A DNA stretch of 10,013 bases from Candidatus Aenigmatarchaeota archaeon. GTDB lineage: Archaea; Aenigmatarchaeota; Aenigmatarchaeia; QMZP01. The position numbers and the translations under genes were made by a program. The number at the start of each line of letters is the position of its first letter. Position 1 is the stretch's first letter. The stretch spans positions 1 through 10,013 of the forward strand of contig JAVZYR010000020.1 of NCBI GenBank assembly GCA_038999435.1, in the 5' to 3' direction. Below, in pieces: positions 171 to 7,427 of the stretch. The notes beneath the pieces are model-generated. The model was not told the origin of the DNA, searched no databases, and saw only the letters and a list, made by a program, of their open reading frames with translations.

Positions 171-706
171 ATCTCCCTCACCATTAGAATCTTATCAAGA
201 TATTGCCTTCCTACCTTATAGCCCTTTGGTATCTTTCCATAGATTTTAAAGCCCATCTTTTTGTAAAGCCTAATCGCAACCTTGTTGTCTTCAATCACCC
301 AAAGCCTTACAATCTTTATCCCAATCTTTTTTGCCTCCTTCATTGCCTCTGACATGAGAATCTTTCCGAGCCCGAGCCCGCGAAAGCCATTTGCTACCAT
401 CAATCCCATTGTGCCAACATGCTCGCTGTGATTTGGGAACGGTGGGTTTTTTATAATATCACATCTTCCAACAATCTTTCCCTCATATTCTGCTAGCACA
501 TCTGCCCTTTTGCCTTTACTGATTGCCTTTAAAACAGACTTCAGATACTTTTTCTCTTCATTTATACTCACTGGCTTCATTAGCTCAATCCTTGCCCCTT
601 CCCTCACAATTCCATTAACAAACCTCATCAGCGCCTCTGCATCACTGAACCTTGGCTGTCTGAGCAAAACCCTTTTTCCATTCTTTAACAAAGCATACCT
701 TTTCAT
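167..706 (-). CDS. GNAT family N-acetyltransferase
   Basis: Acetyl-CoA-binding motif A ([11 protein letters not shown]) and motif B ([17 protein letters not shown]), preceded by [13 protein letters not shown] overlaps at both ends. Confidence 0.92.
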
Positions 707-2097
707 ATCTCATTCACGATTGGGATATTTGGAACGCGCAATTTTATATTGAACTTTTTTGCCGCTTCAAGCAACAACATATCATCCCAATGATTGCCTA
801 TGAGATGAACACCTACAGGAAGGTTATTATGAAATGTGAATGGCACGTTTAGGTGTGGTAGACCTGCAAGGTTTGGCCCAACAGTTAGTATATCCATCTG
901 ATATTGCTGAAGTGGGCTTAATCCTGCTATCTCAGAGAATTTTGGCGCAATGGTTGGCATTGTAGGAGAAAGGAGCATATCATAGTGCTTTAATATGGTC
1001 TTGAATTCTTTTATAATCTCAGCCCTAACCTGAAGTGCCTTTAGATAATATTTATCCCTATATCCTGCAAGCCGAGCAAATGTACCAAGTATAATCCTCC
1101 TCTTTGCCTCCTCACCAAAATATGCCCCTCTTATTGCTGAAAAATATTCATTGAAATCTCCTGCTATCACACCTTCCTTGCCATATCTCATCCCACAGAA
1201 TTTTGCAAGGTTCGTCGAGGCTTCGCTACAGGCAATGATATAGTATGCTGGTATGTGATATTTCAAAAGCTTCAATGAAACCTCTTCACATTCTGCACCA
1301 TTTCTCTCTAACATTTTTGCAGCATCCCACACAGCATTTTCCACATCATCATCTGCTGCATCAAGGTACTCCTTTGGCAGAGCTACCCTTTTTATCTTTT
1401 TTGGTTTATTCAATTTTGCCTTGGCTGTCGTTGGGTCTCTTTTATCTTTTCCTGCAATGATGTCGAGCATAACCTTTATCCCATCAATATCCCTTGCCAT
1501 GATACCAATCTTATCAAGCGAGTTTGCATAATCTATCAGGCCATATCGAGAGACAAGACCATATGTTGGTGTGAGCCCAAAAACACCACACCATGCAGCA
1601 GGACATGATATCGAACCGCCGGTTGATTGTGCCAGAGCAATGTGCGGCATATCCAGTGCAGCTGTAAGTGCTGCAGTCCCTCCTGATGAGCCACCGCAAA
1701 CACGCTCCATATCCCATGGATTTTTTGGTATGCCATAACCAGAGTTTGTGCAAAATGTGCCAAAGCCAAACTCATCCTGATTCGTCTTGCCAATAATAAA
1801 ACCGCCTTCGGCCTTGACCCTTGCAACTGCTGTTGCATCGTATGGCGGGGCCCATCCCTCAAGTATCTTTGAACCAGCAGATGATTGCATGCCTTTTACA
1901 CATATACAGTCCTTTACAGAAACCGGAAGTCCAGCAAGTTTGCCTTTTGATGTTTTTGGCGCTGAACCCTCATCTGCCATTGTCACAAATATATTCAGCT
2001 TCTTGTCAATCTCCCTTATCTTCTCAAAAAGCCTGTGATAAAATTTTTGCAACTCATCCTGACCCATTCGCCTTTTCAGAAAATCAGCCACATCCAT
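703..2097 (-). CDS. gatA: Asp/Glu-tRNA amidotransferase subunit A (amidase-signature family)
   Basis: Motifs PVSVKD, GKTNQDEF, GGSSGG, TGGSI, EASTNLAKFCGMRYG, FGEEAKRRIILGT and YYLKALQVR; gatB is two genes downstream. Confidence 0.95.
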   Translation of the reverse strand: MDVADFLKRRMGQDELQKFYHRLFEKIREIDKKLNIFVTMADEGSAPKTSKGKLAGLPVSVKDCICVKGMQSSAGSKILEGWAPPYDATAVARVKAEGGFIIGKTNQDEFGFGTFCTNSGYGIPKNPWDMERVCGGSSGGTAALTAALDMPHIALAQSTGGSISCPAAWCGVFGLTPTYGLVSRYGLIDYANSLDKIGIMARDIDGIKVMLDIIAGKDKRDPTTAKAKLNKPKKIKRVALPKEYLDAADDDVENAVWDAAKMLERNGAECEEVSLKLLKYHIPAYYIIACSEASTNLAKFCGMRYGKEGVIAGDFNEYFSAIRGAYFGEEAKRRIILGTFARLAGYRDKYYLKALQVRAEIIKEFKTILKHYDMLLSPTMPTIAPKFSEIAGLSPLQQYQMDILTVGPNLAGLPHLNVPFTFHNNLPVGVHLIGNHWDDMLLLEAAKKFNIKLRVPNIPIVNEI

Positions 2098-2124
2098 ATT
2101 TTTAGTTGCATCATAAAATTAAAT
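2098..2124. promoter_or_regulatory. 27-bp divergent spacer, probably overlapping TATA-type promoters for leaderless gatA and pop5 transcripts
   Basis: AT-rich spacer ATTTTTAGTTGCATCATAAAATTAAAT between head-to-head ATGs (2097 minus, 2125 plus). No SD-like motif for either gene. Confidence 0.5.
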
Positions 2125-2475
2125 ATGAAGTTCAAGGTCCTTCCCAGCACAAGGATTAAAAAAAGATATGTTGCCTTCAAGCTCATCTCTAGTGGGCCTG
2201 TGCAGCTGGCAAATATAAAAGATTCGATTAGGGCAAGTATTATAAAGTGGATTGGAGAAAAAGGATTTGGTGAATCAGGATATAAATTCATATCATGGGA
2301 TGAAAAGCAAAAAATAGGCATTATCAGATGCAACCATACATTTGTCGATGATATTAAAGTTGCACTTGCCCTTGTTCATCAAATAGGTGATGAGCATGTC
2401 ATTTTTGCATCATTCAGGGTCTCTGGAACAATAAAGGGTTTGGGAAAAGAAAAACCAAAGGTTGTGGAAGAGTGA
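2125..2475 (+). CDS. rnp2: Ribonuclease P protein component 2 (Pop5/Rpp14 family)
   Basis: LPSTRIKKRYVAF ... GIIRCNH ... VSGTIKG fits archaeal Pop5 (R/K-RY, GIxR, SGTI). Start moved from 2035 to ATG 2125 because the longer form overlaps gatA. Confidence 0.9.
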   Translation: MKFKVLPSTRIKKRYVAFKLISSGPVQLANIKDSIRASIIKWIGEKGFGESGYKFISWDEKQKIGIIRCNHTFVDDIKVALALVHQIGDEHVIFASFRVSGTIKGLGKEKPKVVEE

Positions 2476-2476
2476 T

Positions 2477-3337
2477 ATGGAATGGTTTTGGCTCTCTCTT
2501 CTTGCTGCATTTCTCTGGTCCATTGTAAATATTATTGATAAACATGTCATTGATAGCGAGCTTAAAGACCCGATATTATGCTCGGTTTCTTATACATCAG
2601 CTGTGTTTTTTGTTTTCCTTTTCTCTTCTCTTTTGCTCAGCAAAGTTGATTTTGGCATCGAATCTCTAATATCTTTTGCAGCAGGGGTTGTTTTTGGTTT
2701 TGCTGTGTATTTTTACTTCAAGGCACTTCGATATGGTGAGATATCAAGGGTTATACCTCTCTCAATGCTCGGCGTTTTATTTGTTGTGATGTTTGCGCTG
2801 ATTTTTTTCGGAGAAAGCCTTAATCTATTAAATTATATTGGCATTGCATCTCTGCTTCTTGGTGCAATATTGATATCGTACAAAAAGGATAGGGCGGGAA
2901 AAAAATTTGTCCTGTTTGGTCTTATCTCAGCGATGCTATTCGCTTTGCGGGATATCTTGACAAAATGGAGTATGGCTGCTTCACCTCTTTCTGTCCTATT
3001 TTGGATAGCCCTTGGAACACTTTTCTATTCTTTGTTTATGATAGCCATTCATCATCCACATCTGAGAAAAAAGATGGTTTCAGGTGTTGAGCACATCTTT
3101 ATCGTGTCCTTTATATCTGCTACAGCACTACTTGTGTTTGTTTTTGCAATGTCTATTGGCCCACTTTCTTTAGTTAGGGTTGCTGCAACATCACAAGGGC
3201 TATTTGTGTTCATTTTGGCATTATTTTTGAGCAAAACACATCCGCATATCATAAAAGAAGAGATGAGGGCAAGTATCATCGAGAGAAAATTGATAGCAAT
3301 ACTTCTCATTATCTTGGGTATAGCATTGATAGCTTAG
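2477..3337 (+). CDS. EamA/DMT family transporter
   Basis: About 10 hydrophobic segments in two repeats: LLAAFLWSIVNIIDK, YFKALRYGEISRVIPL, FFGESL, GPLSLV. Start at ATG 2477, 1 nt after the pop5 stop. Confidence 0.9.
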   Translation: MEWFWLSLLAAFLWSIVNIIDKHVIDSELKDPILCSVSYTSAVFFVFLFSSLLLSKVDFGIESLISFAAGVVFGFAVYFYFKALRYGEISRVIPLSMLGVLFVVMFALIFFGESLNLLNYIGIASLLLGAILISYKKDRAGKKFVLFGLISAMLFALRDILTKWSMAASPLSVLFWIALGTLFYSLFMIAIHHPHLRKKMVSGVEHIFIVSFISATALLVFVFAMSIGPLSLVRVAATSQGLFVFILALFLSKTHPHIIKEEMRASIIERKLIAILLIILGIALIA

Positions 3338-3615
3338 CCTTTTGACTTTTTCTTGAATTCTTCCTCTGCTTCTTCCTCTTTGTGCAGGCCATACAAAAAC
3401 AATTTTATAAGCCAAAAGCCGAGTATACCTCCAAGTAAACCACCAAAAAGATAGGGCCATGGAGAATCGAAAACAAATTCTGTGAACGGTTCATGACCAG
3501 GATAGAATGAGCGGTGTACATCAAAAACAAAAAGTCCCACAAGTGTTAATATTGCAGGTATTGTAATGAATATCGCATCTGCGATCAGCTCATCCTTTGT
3601 TATCCTACCTCTCAT
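3334..3615 (-). CDS. Small two-TM membrane protein with charged C-terminal tail, unknown function
   Basis: Two hydrophobic stretches, the second Gly-rich (LFGGLLGGILG), then an EEEAEEEFKKK tail. Fills the gap between eamA and alba; TTTTATAA lies 20-27 nt upstream. Confidence 0.75.
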   Translation of the reverse strand: MRGRITKDELIADAIFITIPAILTLVGLFVFDVHRSFYPGHEPFTEFVFDSPWPYLFGGLLGGILGFWLIKLFLYGLHKEEEAEEEFKKKSKG

Positions 3616-3634
3616 AAAAATTATTGTAATGTCA

Positions 3635-3642
3635 TTATAAAA
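3635..3642 (-). promoter_or_regulatory. Putative TATA box for the 93-aa membrane protein gene
   Basis: Minus strand reads TTTTATAA 20-27 nt upstream of ATG 3615. No SD, consistent with a leaderless archaeal transcript. Confidence 0.45.
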
Positions 3643-3674
3643 AATAAAAAAAGAAGTAGGCCTTTGACCTACTT
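3639..3674 (-). terminator. Hairpin plus U-tract terminator of alba
   Basis: Minus-strand RNA AAGUAGGUC-AAA-GGCCUACUU (9-bp stem with one U-G pair) followed by CUUUUUUUAUUUUUU. The stem includes the alba stop codon. Confidence 0.7.
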
Positions 3675-3953
3675 TCTAAGAACAATCTCTATTGTTGAAA
3701 CCCTTAGGTTTTCGTTTTCTTTTCCTTTTACCTCTTCTGTTCCTATTGTCACTTCTGTCTTTACGCCTTGCACAAATCTGTTCTTCAGAACCTCAGCCAC
3801 ATCCACTGCTCGGGATATAGCTCGGCCCCGTGCTTTTATTCGAACTTCTTTTGCGCCGTCCGAAAATTGTGTCATTGCTGCAAGGACGTAAGACATTGTT
3901 GGCTTTTTGCCAACAAGTATGACATTTTCGTCAGTTTTTGTTTTTTCTGCCAT
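3669..3953 (-). CDS. albA: DNA/RNA-binding protein Alba
   Basis: Classic Alba motifs [31 protein letters not shown] and VSTIEIVL. Confidence 0.97.
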
Positions 3954-3958
3954 GCTAG

Positions 3959-3966
3959 CACCTCCT
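3959..3966 (-). promoter_or_regulatory. Strong Shine-Dalgarno for alba
   Basis: AGGAGGTG on the minus strand, 5 nt before ATG 3953. Confidence 0.8.
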
Positions 3967-4015
3967 GTTTTGTTGCTTTATCTTTAATTTATGGTTTGGA
4001 TTTTTAAGCATTTGC

Positions 4016-4630
4016 TCACCTAAGATACCCAAGTTCTTCAATAACTATATATGCCATCATGCCAGCAGCAAAAGTCATTGCAAACGCTTGTGCTGTCTGA
4101 CTTAATCCAAACAAAGCTACATATGTGAGAAATCCACCAATGCAATACGCAACCTGCGTCAAAACCAATGCCTTTAGGGCGTGCATACTTTTCTTTTTTA
4201 AAAGGTATGGAATCGCTACTATTGAACCTTCTGGTATATTATGGATGGCCATAAGTGCTGCAGTCAGAATGCCTACTGCTTTATCTAAAATATAAGCTGA
4301 ACCAAATGCAATGCCTTCTGGTAATTCATGAAAGCACATTGCACAGAATATAAGAAATCCTACCCGTTCAATACCTGTGATATGGCTATGAGGTATGGTT
4401 TTGTTAAGTAACAACATTAGAAATATCCCTGCAAGCATAGATAAAGGCGCCAAATATGTTATCAACGCACCTTCCCATACAAGTTCTGCAATAATCACAG
4501 ACATCATAATCATTTCAACAATCAAAATCCTTTTCACCTGTTTGAATCTCTTTATTACAATCCAAGAAATTAATCCTCCAAGTAGTTGTGATAGCGCAAC
4601 ACCAATTAATAAAAATGTAAATAGTAGCAT
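4016..4630 (-). CDS. ZIP family (ZupT/GufA-like) divalent metal transporter, compact form
   Basis: Paired motifs HELPEGIAFG and AIHNIPEG, an HSH loop and C-terminal FAAGMMAYIVIEEL; highly hydrophobic. Confidence 0.92.
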   Translation of the reverse strand: MLLFTFLLIGVALSQLLGGLISWIVIKRFKQVKRILIVEMIMMSVIIAELVWEGALITYLAPLSMLAGIFLMLLLNKTIPHSHITGIERVGFLIFCAMCFHELPEGIAFGSAYILDKAVGILTAALMAIHNIPEGSIVAIPYLLKKKSMHALKALVLTQVAYCIGGFLTYVALFGLSQTAQAFAMTFAAGMMAYIVIEELGYLR

Positions 4631-4633
4631 AGC

Positions 4634-5632
4634 TCAGCTTTTAACAAGATTGAATGTATAGTTTGCAATAAGTGGGCTGAATGCAATTTCAGTGCCATTG
4701 AAGACAGGATACCTGTCCTGACTCTCTATGACAACCTCTCCAACTGCATCTATTTTATATTCAAAATTGCATTCTACCCTAATCCAACCATTTTCAGAAA
4801 CAGGATATATGCCTGTTATTAAAGGCATAATTTTTACATTTTTAATACCCTTTTTTATCACAATATTACCTTCTTTCTCTTCAATACTTTTTACAAGGTC
4901 TTTTTCATATTCATCAAGTGAATACCCTTCTATCTCAAGCACCTTTTTACACACATCATTTAGATTCTTCATATCTATCCCTTCAAATACAGCCTTTGGA
5001 TATTTCTTTGAATCTTTAGGAAGTCTTTTTGGTAGAGTTGAAATTTTAGATTCAAACCTTGTCCTCTCATCCTGTTCAAAATTTGCAGCATTGGCCTTTG
5101 CAAAGTTAAAAATGCTTAGACATGGCATTTCTATCGTCTTCACTACCAAGCCATCCTTTTCGAGTTTTATATCCTTTGATACAAGTCCGGTTAAAGAGTA
5201 GCTTTTTGAAACCGAAATATTTTCCAAAGGCACAGCAACTACTTTTATATTGTTTTCATTTACATCTGTAATGCTAATTTCGTACTGTGGTAATTTTACT
5301 TGATATCCTTCCATAAATACATAGTCTTCGGATGTGTACACAGCTAAATTTTCTTTTATCCTGTTTTTAATAGATTCCACAAAACTTGTTTCGCTACTTG
5401 GCATTGTCTTCAGCACATCATAGCATGCCTGATAGGTTGAAAAAATTAGGCTTGTTTCAATGTATGCCTTTGCAGCCTTTAAACTATTTAATAATGTATA
5501 TGTATCTTCCTGTAACATCCTTTCTTCTGTTCTTACAAACTTTTCTGCCTGGAATGCAAGCAAAAACATTATTATACCCATCACTACCAAAACAATAAGC
5601 AATATCTCTTGAGCAACACCTCTCATCTTCAT
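4634..5632 (-). CDS. Prepilin-like (class III signal peptide) exported protein, 332 aa
   Basis: MKMRG|VAQEILLIVLVVMGIIMFLLAF N-terminus followed by a soluble domain with 4 Cys. ATGA overlap with the M23 gene. Confidence 0.7.
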   Translation of the reverse strand: MKMRGVAQEILLIVLVVMGIIMFLLAFQAEKFVRTEERMLQEDTYTLLNSLKAAKAYIETSLIFSTYQACYDVLKTMPSSETSFVESIKNRIKENLAVYTSEDYVFMEGYQVKLPQYEISITDVNENNIKVVAVPLENISVSKSYSLTGLVSKDIKLEKDGLVVKTIEMPCLSIFNFAKANAANFEQDERTRFESKISTLPKRLPKDSKKYPKAVFEGIDMKNLNDVCKKVLEIEGYSLDEYEKDLVKSIEEKEGNIVIKKGIKNVKIMPLITGIYPVSENGWIRVECNFEYKIDAVGEVVIESQDRYPVFNGTEIAFSPLIANYTFNLVKS

Positions 5633-6600
5633 GCCATACTCATGGATATTTTGAAATTACCCGGCCGTGCCCCAGGCAAAGGTATCTCAGCACTCCATCT
5701 CCCACCCATACCTGCCTTTCCTTCACCTATACCTAAATATGGTGATGGGTCAACAGCTGCTATTTTCTGCATGCTGTCTTTTCTCAATTCAAAATGCAAA
5801 TGCGGACCTGTTGTTCTGCCTGTATTTCCACTTTTGCCGATCTCTTGGCCTTTGTAAACTTCGTCACCTTCATCTACAGTCACAGAGCTGAGATGCAAAT
5901 AATATGAATAAAAGATATTGCCGTATATATTGTGCTTTAGGATAACATAATTTCCATTTCCATTGTTGCACTTACAACCCTCTTTTTCAGCATCTTCAAG
6001 GCTTGCTTCAAGACAATTAAAGCCGAGGCGCACATTAGGACATCCTGTGCCTACTTCTATTACTTCACCATCTTCAATTGTTTGAACAGTTGTGCCTATC
6101 TCTACTGCAAAATCTATCCCTCTATGCATGTATCCTCTCCATTCACCAAACTCAGAAGTTATCGCTTGTTTTAACTGTTCAGGCTTCATCCTCAATGGTG
6201 GATAAAAGATTATTTTTTCTTTTGGTACTTCTCCACCAAACCCAAATTGCTCAATTGGCACGTATGTACCAGGTGCTAAACCCTCTTTAAAAAGAATGAT
6301 GCTAAAGTACGGGTCTATTTTTTTTGCTGTTTCATTAACAATAGCAATCTCCGATTCATTCCTTCCTGTAACATTTCTTTCCCCTAAAATTTGCATGAAT
6401 GGCTTTCCTTTCTCTGACAAAAGCAAGCTTGTCATCTCAGCACCAGAATCTGCTGATTCTACGTAGATAGTCATAGTTGCCTTTGCCTTTGCATGCACTT
6501 TTTGCAGGCCAACGCCAAGTAAAAAAGAAATCCCAACTATAGCTATGGCTATTATCAAACCAAAGAATACTGTTGCTTGGCCCCTTAATCTATTCTTCAT
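5629..6600 (-). CDS. Prepilin-like protein with M23 family zinc metallopeptidase domain
   Basis: N-terminus MKNRLRG|QATVFFGLIIAIAIVGISFLLG. M23 motifs ITSEFG, HRGIDF (HxxxD), GNYVILKH, YYLHLS, VYKGQEIGKSGNTGRTTGPHLHFE (HxH) and VDP. Confidence 0.92.
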   Translation of the reverse strand: MKNRLRGQATVFFGLIIAIAIVGISFLLGVGLQKVHAKAKATMTIYVESADSGAEMTSLLLSEKGKPFMQILGERNVTGRNESEIAIVNETAKKIDPYFSIILFKEGLAPGTYVPIEQFGFGGEVPKEKIIFYPPLRMKPEQLKQAITSEFGEWRGYMHRGIDFAVEIGTTVQTIEDGEVIEVGTGCPNVRLGFNCLEASLEDAEKEGCKCNNGNGNYVILKHNIYGNIFYSYYLHLSSVTVDEGDEVYKGQEIGKSGNTGRTTGPHLHFELRKDSMQKIAAVDPSPYLGIGEGKAGMGGRWSAEIPLPGARPGNFKISMSMA

Positions 6601-6994
6601 AACCTATCCATAACTTTGCAGGATGAATCTCATTTTCAACTTGTATGCTTGTATACACAACCCTTTCCTCTTTTCCTTCTTTGTCAAATTTCCAAACCTT
6701 TTTTGTGATTATGTCCTGTACCCATGCAAAATCTGCAACAATGTGCGGACAAATATCAGTGATTTTTTTCTTTTCATTCTCATCGAGAAAACTCGAATTT
6801 ATATAATCATTACCCTGTCTTAAACATGCCTCCACTAATCTCTCAGCTGCTATCTTATTTATCTCTGCAGCAACTGTTTTGCTCGAATACTGAAGCTGTA
6901 TAAGATTTGAAAACAATAAAACAACGCTCACTGCAAAAGTGCCAACTACGAGCAGACCAAGGAATACTGTATACATAAGCGAATACATGCCCAT
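6590..6994 (-). CDS. Pilin-like single-TM protein, 134 aa
   Basis: MG|MYSLMYTVFLGLLVVGTFAVSVVLLF, then a predicted helix, a Cys pair and a beta-rich C-terminus. AGGAGG SD 7 nt upstream; 11-nt overlap with the M23 gene. Confidence 0.7.
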   Translation of the reverse strand: MGMYSLMYTVFLGLLVVGTFAVSVVLLFSNLIQLQYSSKTVAAEINKIAAERLVEACLRQGNDYINSSFLDENEKKKITDICPHIVADFAWVQDIITKKVWKFDKEGKEERVVYTSIQVENEIHPAKLWIGYEE

Positions 6995-7013
6995 TTTTAT
7001 TCCTCCTTATATT

Positions 7014-7427
7014 TCATGCCACGACACCTATGCCTGGTTTTAAACTTATGCCTCCTTCTGACTTTTCTATCCTAAGCTGCCTTATGTTTTTAAATTCCTT
7101 TTCTCCACCCATATCAAGCATTATGGATGCAGGGTCGGATTTTATTTTTTCATGCATAACCCTAACCTGATATCTTTTCTGAAGTATACCTGCCATCTCT
7201 ATTTTGACATCCCATTCTGCTGCAAACACCAGTGTGGCATTTCCTTTTTCAACACCACCAAGTCCATTTATGCTCAGCGCAATCACACGGGCAAGCGCAT
7301 CTGCCTGCTCCTTGCCATAGACCTGTGCAGTTGGCACAAAAATCCTTGGTATGATGAGCACAAGCACAACAAGGGCCATACCTATTGCAAATATTGCTTC
7401 AACCATTACAGAAACAGCTGCTTTCAT
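7014..7427 (-). CDS. Prepilin-like (class III signal peptide) protein, 137 aa
   Basis: MKA|AVSVMVEAIFAIGMALVVLVLII, then a predicted helix (QADALARVIALSINGL) and beta-rich C-terminus. ATGA overlap with the upstream gene. Confidence 0.72.
   Translation of the reverse strand: MKAAVSVMVEAIFAIGMALVVLVLIIPRIFVPTAQVYGKEQADALARVIALSINGLGGVEKGNATLVFAAEWDVKIEMAGILQKRYQVRVMHEKIKSDPASIMLDMGGEKEFKNIRQLRIEKSEGGISLKPGIGVVA

Follow-up and report, generated by a model that had tools for sequence, protein, structure and literature searches.

A lysostaphin-type M23 domain inserted into a scaffold protein with a prepilin-type leader in an operon of Aenigmatarchaeota

Why does an archaeon encode an enzyme of the murein-cutting type behind a prepilin-type leader, and whose wall would such an enzyme act on? 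The question is raised by one gene on contig JAVZYR010000020.1 (assembly GCA_038999435.1, Candidatus Aenigmatarchaeota archaeon), which belongs to a genome of 549 kb in 30 contigs that is 86% complete. The entire contig (C20), 10,013 bases long, was analysed and is called the window below. The initial annotation, made from the sequence, had described the gene as a fusion of an archaeal prepilin with an M23 peptidase and had inferred display on a type IV-like filament or the cell surface. Our analysis indicated that both the leader and the M23 domain are real and that the product is no simple fusion: the M23 domain interrupts a small scaffold protein (~150 residues, order-specific) in a loop close to its C-terminal end, and the scaffold gene forms part of a five-protein operon. 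We favour the reading that the operon encodes a prepilin-processed heteromeric surface complex, which would present a murein hydrolase to bacteria, and give it a probability of roughly two in three. The parts of the M23-bearing protein are as follows, with coordinates in the window.

5629-6600, minus strand: open reading frame (ORF) of the M23-bearing scaffold protein (P0001), 323 residues, fourth gene of the operon
6580-6600, minus strand: leader MKNRLRG, residues 1-7, ending in R-G, with a putative prepilin-peptidase site between G7 and Q8
6499-6579, minus strand: hydrophobic helix, residues 8-34 by hydropathy scan (helix 6-34 in the model)
6241-6453, minus strand: N-terminal part of the scaffold ectodomain, residues ~50-120, three helices and two strands in the model
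5725-6204, minus strand: inserted M23 catalytic domain, residues ~133-292, from the Pfam and structural matches
6112-6126, minus strand: HRGID (H159 and D163), the HxxxD zinc motif, from sequence reading
5893-5895, minus strand: H236 in YLHLS, a conserved catalytic-type histidine, at least 90% conserved in a 20-row alignment (A2)
5794-5802, minus strand: HLH (H267 and H269), the HxH motif, from sequence reading
5632-5703, minus strand: C-terminal strands of the scaffold, residues 300-323, which rejoin the scaffold domain after the insert

Searching the protein against Pfam with hidden Markov models (HMMs), a check that the initial annotation had proposed, returned Peptidase_M23 (PF01551) as the sole match, scoring 92.8 bits (cut-off 28.7; E 1.6e-26), and the zinc ligands lie exactly where that annotation had placed them. 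All five residues expected for catalysis (H159, D163, H236, H267, and H269) are present; the role of H236 and those of the individual motif residues are presumably the same as in LytM, by homology. In alignment A2, H159 and H267 are invariant, D163 is at least 90% conserved, and the position of H269 is occupied by His in 17 of the 20 rows, by Asp in two, and by Tyr in one. A profile search of the PDB with the protein found ShyA (E 4.2e-29), and a Foldseek search with the structural model found lysostaphin and LytM with template-modelling (TM) scores of 0.83-0.85 by target. Superposition with VIA-align matched LytM (2b0p_A) over 127 residues, model range 133-291, with a Z score of 18.0 and a root mean square deviation of 1.8. 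Sub-threshold NCBIfam matches named MepM, ShyA, Pgp3, and DipM, together with weak matches to EnvC, NlpD, and ActS. Judged from its residues and matches, the domain is apparently an active zinc endopeptidase of the lysostaphin/LytM type, with which, as with ShyA and MepM, it has the catalytic fold and the HxxxD and HxH motifs in common. It contains in addition a sub-insert with four cysteines (C187, C196, C209, and C211) at 5980-6045 on the minus strand, residues 186-215, which is modelled with high confidence, is common to a subset of the relatives, and may form disulfides or a second metal site.

The insertion was recognised by comparison with shorter relatives. Of 61 genomes (60 relatives and the window's own), 41 were matched by a profile that combined the M23 protein with four of its relatives. 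The 31 related loci comprise 18 first-round loci with full-length matches and 13 second-round loci matched at the N-terminal part alone. Twelve of these 13 have, in the M23 slot, a gene that encodes only 137-167 residues. All 12 short products, which have no M23 domain, match the profile at about positions 1-120, the N-terminal part of the scaffold; ten of them also match at 313-340, and nothing matches between. Since these relatives match both ends of the profile without its middle, the M23 domain is identified as an insertion. Models of the full protein were made with AlphaFold2 (AF2) and reached a mean predicted local distance difference test (pLDDT) of 74.5 with the 20-row alignment, and of 85.2, with a predicted TM score of 0.68, with 144 rows. 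The AF2 model begins with a helix (6-34) and a stretch of low confidence (35-51); residues 52-115 form three helices and two strands, and beyond the M23 domain, whose pLDDT is in the 90s, strands follow at 300-307 and 317-322. The C-terminal strands contain an IPLPG motif (5671-5685), in which P309 and G310 are at least 90% conserved over the 144 rows. In structural comparison, the nearest folds to the scaffold are periplasmic PAS/Cache-like sensor domains; these rows skip the M23 domain and align ~80 residues across the model range 48-323, which shows that the N- and C-terminal segments flanking the insert belong to a single domain.

What the scaffold carries differs among relatives, and these differences bear on the target. 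A profile of 12 short scaffolds was compared with 1.84 billion representative proteins and gave 233 matches at E<=0.001, the best 150 of which were examined. Among these 150 representatives, 119 are short (109-168 residues) and 31 are long. Thirty of the 31 long ones were scanned against Pfam, the remaining one (P0005) being already marked as M23. M23 was found alone in 22 of the 30, SLT in two, Peptidase_M15_4 in two, CHAP in one, and Glucosaminidase in one, and one gave no match; the last of the 30, a 780-residue representative (P0183), has an NlpC/P60 domain, an M23 domain, and a carboxypeptidase-type domain strung on the scaffold. The loci tell the same way: the thirteenth second-round locus (L124:5233-6285, minus strand) has a Glucosaminidase domain (E 5.8e-21) at the M23 position. 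The neighbouring slots also carry such modules. The slot of the 137-residue protein has a C-terminal SLT lytic transglycosylase domain in nine related loci, and that of the 332-residue protein has SLT in three loci, PG_binding_1 in two, and a GDSL hydrolase in one; the window versions of both have none of these. In this genome, SLT domains were found elsewhere, in a 224-residue membrane-anchored protein (contig C26) and a 1196-residue protein (contig C12).

SLT, GH73-type glucosaminidase, CHAP, M15, and PG_binding_1 are murein-specific families, which act on or bind bacterial murein. Because relatives place other murein hydrolases in the same slot, bacterial murein is strongly favoured among the three targets proposed by the initial annotation; its other two candidates, pseudomurein and a host S-layer, found no support. 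The producer itself appears to have no murein to cut. In the genome of the window (86% complete), neither Mur_ligase_M nor the penicillin-binding protein (PBP) transpeptidase gave a match. Across the 61 genomes, 18 have a single Mur-ligase-type match each, in a family test in which murein-free control archaea also gave a match, and a PBP match was found in one. These gene contents indicate a producer without murein-synthesis genes and suggest that murein of its own wall is not the target of the M23 domain. The GDSL/SGNH domain in the 332-residue-family partner of one relative (L118:5355-6845, minus strand) could, as a guess, be an esterase on modified wall sugars.

Analysis of the N-termini indicated that the scaffold and its operon partners have a common type of signal. 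The M23 protein begins MKNRLRG, followed by QATVFFGLIIAIAIVGISFLLGV, that is, a short basic leader and then a hydrophobic stretch. A leader was scored when K/R-G/A occurred in the 12 residues before, or in the first four residues of, the first hydrophobic window. The pattern was found in 32/32 locus members of the M23-slot family, and in 31/32, 19/22, 20/26, and 16/18 members of the families of the 332-, 137-, 134-, and 228-residue operon proteins, respectively. It was also found in 135 of 149 scaffold library representatives (50%-identity clusters, among those listed); in these 135, K occupies position -2 in 129, position -1 holds either G (107) or A (28), and leaders have a median length of seven residues. 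As a control, 32 of 131 ORFs of the genome with an N-terminal hydrophobic helix (24%) have the pattern. Many of these 32 cluster by T2SSE/T2SSF genes or match Pilin_N and are probably real pilin-like proteins. Comparison of 32/32 in the M23 slot with 32/131 in the control indicates a signal-like N-terminus beyond chance, and the class III-like leader of the initial annotation is thereby upheld.

The genome encodes an enzyme that could process such leaders. An A24 prepilin peptidase was found at C1:59233-59547 (PF01478, 34.9 bits against a cut-off of 26.5), its ORF (C1:59218-59958) encoding 246 residues with a GDGD motif. Because the motif is conserved and this peptidase is present, we infer that cleavage between G7 and Q8 is plausible. 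Four T2SSE and four T2SSF matches lie away from the operon, on contigs C6 and C14, and a genome-wide search for Pilin_N returned two ORFs only, both on contig C6. Further clusters of ORFs with K/R-G/A leaders were observed at C17:1-9422 and C16:3259-6848 and include proteins of 1253 and 614 residues, which suggests that this small genome invests heavily in prepilin-type surface proteins.

The genes around the M23 gene, all read in the same direction, are as follows; a slash marks the end of the leader.

8020-8190, minus strand: small single-pass membrane protein, 56 residues, at the head of the conserved cluster, with no K-G/A leader
7424-7987, minus strand: first leader-bearing gene (228-residue family), with its likely start at an internal ATG (7987), giving MRG/IERD and a helix; the mechanical ORF listing extends it to 8110
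7014-7427, minus strand: second operon gene, 137 residues, beginning MKA/AVSV and a helix, with no SLT domain here
6590-6994, minus strand: third operon gene, 134 residues, with an N-terminal hydrophobic helix; its stop overlaps the M23 start
4634-5632, minus strand: fifth operon gene, 332 residues, of unknown family, beginning MKMRG/VAQE and a helix

The operon thus runs from the 56-residue membrane protein through the 228-, 137-, and 134-residue products to the M23 protein (323 residues) and the 332-residue product, and the stop of the M23 gene and the start of the 332-residue gene overlap by 4 nt, as ATGA. The gene order of the window is kept in all 31 related loci, and the M23-slot and 332-residue families are adjacent in 18/18 first-round and 13/13 second-round loci. 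Among the first 18 loci, searched with single sequences by phmmer, the 134-residue family was detected in 12, the 137-residue family in eight, the 228-residue family in six, and the small membrane protein in nine. Among the 13 further loci, searched with family HMMs, the 137- and 134-residue families, the slot, and the 332-residue family were each found in 13, the 228-residue family in 11, and the small protein in ten. A single-sequence search with the 332-residue protein returned only itself and one relative with 38% identity. Its look-alikes in the ESM Atlas (0.93-0.94) are unnamed archaeal clusters, from which no function was taken; the N-terminal 135 residues scored 0.78 there, below lead level, and all structural rows had TM scores below 0.5.

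To the conserved order, structure prediction adds a possible physical association. The ectodomains of the 134-residue protein (33-134), the 332-residue protein (30-330), and the M23 protein (38-323), with their helices removed, were predicted as a three-chain complex, which scored 0.61 against 0.00 for the best of three controls. A score of 0.61 is reached by 116 of 157 solved complexes and by two of 215 mismatched pairs, counts that calibrate only roughly here, where the alignments were our own and three chains were used. The three runs had at least 73% of contacts in common, with partner pLDDT of at least 69. The predicted interface in the M23 protein consists of residues 51-95 and 302-319, including IPLPG, and contains no residue of the M23 domain. 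The model thereby supports contact of the 134- and 332-residue partners with the scaffold, not with the M23 domain, and offers a reason for the conservation of the C-terminal IPLPG motif.

The scaffold is a near-universal, single-copy gene of one DPANN order. Among 301 sampled genomes of the phylum, 73 belong to the window's order, and 66 of these have the scaffold family, each in a single copy; the 228 other genomes gave six weak matches (E 1e-6 to 8e-4). By length of the open frame alone, 43 of the matches in the order have at least 311 residues, 21 have at most 188, and two lie between. For the M23 domain itself, a tree of 160 rows (44 scaffold-borne archaeal rows and 116 bacterial top matches; 125 columns) was built by a quick method. 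The archaeal rows cluster: their labels require five changes on the tree, fewer than in any of 500 shuffles (mean 38.8). They do not form one resolved clade, since well-supported branches force at least two changes, and no well-supported set contains the window's row; no donor is named. The bacterial rows were picked as best matches to the window protein, which biases the tree. In the underlying sequence search, the nearest M23 sequences outside the scaffold family are bacterial. The phylogeny proposed by the initial annotation yielded an archaeal cluster, without a single clade. A search with an M23-core peptide pattern was set aside; it gave 601 relatives, 80 of them retained, all bacterial M23 genes, and the archaeal family was not retrieved.

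The archaeal origin of the window, assumed by the initial annotation from Alba and Pop5, is sustained. Alba lies at 3669-3953 on the minus strand (Pfam E 7e-22) and is an archaeal marker, and Rpp14/Pop5 lies at 2035-2475 (Pfam E 3.4e-17), both on the contig of the M23 gene. The Pfam scan also assigned GatA, the start of GatB, a GNAT acetyltransferase, an EamA transporter, and a ZIP-like protein. Relatives of the M23 protein and of its neighbours are labelled Candidatus Aenigmarchaeota/Aenigmatarchaeota at NCBI; they include a 318-residue protein with 50% identity and a partial 'M23 family metallopeptidase', and in one related locus a radical SAM protein labelled Aenigmarchaeota is a neighbour of the operon. 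Alba adjoins the operon in 12 of the 18 first-round loci, and the guanine-cytosine (GC) content of the contig is uniform from end to end. Four DNA runs of one hot-spring metagenome study carry the stretch, and no RNA run was listed. An 8162-base contig of one of them covers 447-8599, from Alba through the operon; this run is possibly the window's own source sample and then not independent. The junctions between these genes are also spanned by shorter contigs from three other runs of the study. As an independent check, the gene order is common to other genomes, which argues that the contig is not chimeric, and the bacterial or chimeric contig that the initial annotation had named as its own refutation was not borne out.

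These results can be combined into a mechanism. The K/R-G/A leader and the hydrophobic helix would insert the protein into the membrane, and the A24 peptidase would then cut the leader between G7 and Q8. The scaffold ectodomain is predicted to bind its operon partners, giving a heteromeric complex that may be held in the membrane or form a short pseudopilus-like structure. The M23 domain, lying outside the predicted interface, would be free to cut the peptide links in the murein of a bacterium that is touched. Glycan-cutting enzymes would work alongside it, supplied in this genome from elsewhere by the SLT proteins of contigs C12 and C26. A cell that breaches or binds bacterial walls in this way might do so to attach itself, to feed on a bacterial host or prey, or to scavenge material of the wall, and the whole suggests an archaeal group that attacks or feeds on bacteria.

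Several observations weigh against this mechanism. No operon protein matched a pilin family (Pfam E<=0.01, NCBIfam E<=0.1), and no assembly ATPase or platform gene was found in the Pfam scan of the window and seven related loci. The 134-residue partner has lost its K-G leader in this genome. The 24% rate of leader-like patterns in the control includes many likely true pilin-like proteins, which makes the true background uncertain. In the model, residues 35-51 are floppy (pLDDT ~50-58), so the N-terminal part is not one long helix packed on a sheet, and the PAS/Cache-like folds nearest to the scaffold reach Z scores of only 5-6, where values below 8 may reflect a mere common arrangement. The Pfam scan recognised no wall-binding domain in the window protein. 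In one relative (L106:6992-7987, plus strand), the Asp of the HxxxD motif is replaced by Ser and the second His of HxH by Tyr; by its sequence this copy is probably non-catalytic, and its loss of two catalytic-site residues implies that not every family member need be an enzyme.

Some of these observations also bear on true pilus display, in which the five leader proteins would be minor pilins polymerised by one of the type IV pilus machines of the genome, and the M23 domain would sit at the tip or along a filament reaching to a bacterial wall. We regard this alternative as possible, if doubtful. Class III-like leaders are conserved in all five families, the genome has the prepilin peptidase, T2SSE ATPases, and T2SSF platform genes, and five small leader genes in one operon resemble the sets of minor pilins that bacteria use in Com systems and type II secretion. 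A tip complex would be compatible with the heteromeric association predicted for the ectodomains, and bacterial modular pilins carry grafted or inserted modules, peptidases included, according to the available text of PMC8179133. Against it stand the absent pilin HMM matches, a set of 50 listed structural rows that includes no pilin (the M23 domain fills most of them), and the operon itself, which has no candidate major pilin, its 56-residue protein being without a K-G/A leader. Archaeal pilin genes are often unlinked to the assembly ATPase and platform genes. Taken together, the missing pilin signature, the floppy stalk, and the absence of a linked ATPase argue against a classical pilus, and the pilus display put forward in the initial annotation is the less probable reading.

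A plain signal-anchor is the next alternative, and an unlikely one. The protein would then be a tethered enzyme with an uncleaved type II anchor, like the PrgK-type wall hydrolases found in conjugation systems of Gram-positive bacteria, and K/R-G/A would reflect the positive-inside rule alone. Tethered ectoenzymes typically have a floppy stalk such as the one that follows the helix here, the LytM domain of PrgK matches the protein (weak profile E 0.00025, structural Z 12.1), and the absence of a pilin HMM match fits an anchor as well. The C26 SLT protein of the same genome has a helix without K-G/A, as an anchor would. An anchor has no need of Gly or Ala after the basic residue, yet these occupy position -1 throughout the 135 scoring representatives, mostly behind K, and the same leader pattern recurs in the four other operon families. 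The conserved G/A at -1 thus argues against a plain anchor.

It is also improbable that the domain is a non-catalytic LytM-type module that, in the manner of EnvC and NlpD, would activate a separate hydrolase or only bind murein. The weak NCBIfam matches to EnvC, NlpD, and ActS stand beside matches to enzymes, and the relative at L106 has lost D163 and H269; the window protein, however, retains H159, D163, H236, H267, and H269, and its best matches are the active enzymes ShyA, MepM, lysostaphin, and LytM. Remodelling of the producer's own murein-like or pseudomurein wall, or else an assembly artefact or bacterial contamination, is very improbable: M23 enzymes are mostly bacterial autolysins and the nearest M23 sequences outside the family are bacterial, but the genome has no Mur ligase or PBP match, the swapped modules belong to murein-specific families, the operon occurs almost throughout the order and has Alba beside it in 12 other genomes, a single public-run contig spans Alba to the operon, and the GC content of the window is even.

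A bolder version of the favoured reading, which we put forward tentatively and consider rather less likely than a surface complex as such, is that the operon encodes an order-specific host-attack organelle, a prepilin-processed, pseudopilus-like tip complex whose subunits would be sockets for interchangeable murein hydrolases (M23, SLT, GH73-type glucosaminidase, CHAP, M15, and NlpC/P60). If this were true, the lineage would drill the walls of a bacterial host or prey and live on bacteria rather than on other archaea. To our knowledge, the hosts and lifestyle of most DPANN archaea are not known, and an operon that repeatedly acquires murein-cutting modules would be a testable marker of contact between archaea and bacteria. 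The family also represents a naturally occurring collection of wall hydrolases that are compact, probably thermostable, and built on one scaffold.

Comparison with known systems revealed both precedents and differences. Unlike lysostaphin, LytM, and ShyA, the M23 protein of the window comes from an archaeal host without murein-synthesis genes, its catalytic domain sits in an unrelated scaffold with a prepilin-like leader, it has no SH3b or LysM domain, and it has the extra four-cysteine sub-insert. PrgK of pCF10 and VirB1-type proteins, wall hydrolases that serve conjugation and secretion machines, are similar in that an N-terminal membrane helix precedes LytM, SLT, or CHAP-type domains, as occurs across the scaffold family. 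Those hydrolases open the producer's own wall for machine assembly, whereas the window producer has no murein, and the Pfam scan of the window and seven related loci found no secretion gene, of VirB4 type or any other. Among archaea, the Sulfolobus bindosome is a precedent for non-pilin proteins that have a prepilin-type leader and assemble at the cell surface; its sugar-binding proteins have class III signals cut by PibD. Unlike the window protein, these are solute-binding proteins and not hydrolases, and there is no sequence relationship.

The closest bacterial parallel is found among modular type IV pilins, such as PilB and PilC of Streptococcus sanguinis and GspK with its inserted domain, and the modules described in the available text include the peptidases S74 and M26 (PMC8179133). 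As in the window protein, a functional module is grafted or inserted in a small protein with a class III signal (PMC8179133, same text). That survey is based on the bacterial pilin signature IPR012902, and the word 'archaea' is absent from its main text. Unlike modular pilins, the window scaffold is not recognisable as a pilin by HMM or fold, and the modules of its family are murein hydrolases swapped among relatives. The results thereby extend the idea of a modular, enzyme-bearing prepilin-type protein from bacteria to archaea.

Wall hydrolases of archaea are themselves on record. Two peptidoglycan hydrolases of Halogranum, Woldo and Danwoldo, are described in PMC12352652, which also reports bacterium-killing activity of an archaeal M23 enzyme and counts 10 archaeal genomes with M23, including four of Nanoarchaeia. 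For Woesearchaeota and Pacearchaeota, large SLT proteins are reported in PMC8204110 and PMC9723730. These archaeal hydrolases are presumed to act on bacteria, as has been shown for Woldo. The hydrolases described in these texts have Sec/Tat signals and wall-binding domains, or are giant (PMC12352652, PMC8204110, PMC9723730), in which they differ from the window protein. The definition in the available text of PMC12352652 combines a catalytic and a binding domain; the window protein, with M23 as its only Pfam match, falls outside it, and PG_binding_1 occurs only in the 332-residue partner of two relatives. This class would escape any survey that demands both a Sec/Tat signal and a wall-binding domain. 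The words 'pilin' and 'class III' are absent from the main text of PMC12352652, as are 'pili' and 'pilin' from PMC8204110; the supplementary text of PMC12352652 does not contain 'Aenigm' or 'Nanoarchaeia', and its S2 Table, cited for Nanoarchaeia, may fall outside that text. In the main text of PMC8407114, the main Aenigmarchaeota genomics paper, 'peptidoglycan', 'murein', and 'M23' do not occur. We found no paper linking a prepilin-type leader or such an operon to archaeal wall hydrolases, and none in the searched library joining class III signal peptide, peptidoglycan hydrolase, and archaea, or Aenigmarchaeota, pili, and transglycosylase. Murein hydrolases in DPANN archaea and modular pilins in bacteria are thus already known, and the combination of a prepilin-type leader and operon with an archaeal wall hydrolase was not found in print.

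Several features beside the operon were also observed. Directly upstream lies an ORF of more than 606 residues (8192-10012, minus strand), cut by the contig end, with a sequence rich in charged, helix-like stretches; none of the related loci has a homologue of it. In 15 of the 31 related loci, there is instead a conserved membrane-anchored family of 720-1320 residues, which flanks the operon where positions were checked and gave no Pfam match in the members scanned. The upstream ORF did not match this family (phmmer E<=0.001; family HMM E<=10), and a member in this genome lies at C18:10046-11809, also cut by a contig end. In one relative, an ORF of the reverse-gyrase type, with helicase and topoisomerase domains, is located near the operon (L110:11431-14682, plus strand), which fits a thermophilic lineage. 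Between the operon and Alba, a 204-residue fragment resembling a ZIP zinc transporter was found (4016-4630, minus strand; Pfam E 7.6e-8, below the cut-off), and in none of the first 18 related loci was a homologue seen there; that it neighbours a zinc enzyme may be a coincidence.

Two in-frame variants were seen in the public runs, a 9-base insertion at 7725 in the 228-residue gene in one run and, in another, a 6-base deletion at 5763, in the C-terminal part of the M23 gene, at a depth below 5. The window contains no transfer RNA gene, and a scan for sigma-70-type promoters, a model unsuited to an archaeon, was at chance (21 found against 22.6 expected). Directly after the Alba stop, a terminator-like hairpin with a T-run is present at 3654-3674 on the minus strand, and could mark the end of a transcript running from the operon through Alba.

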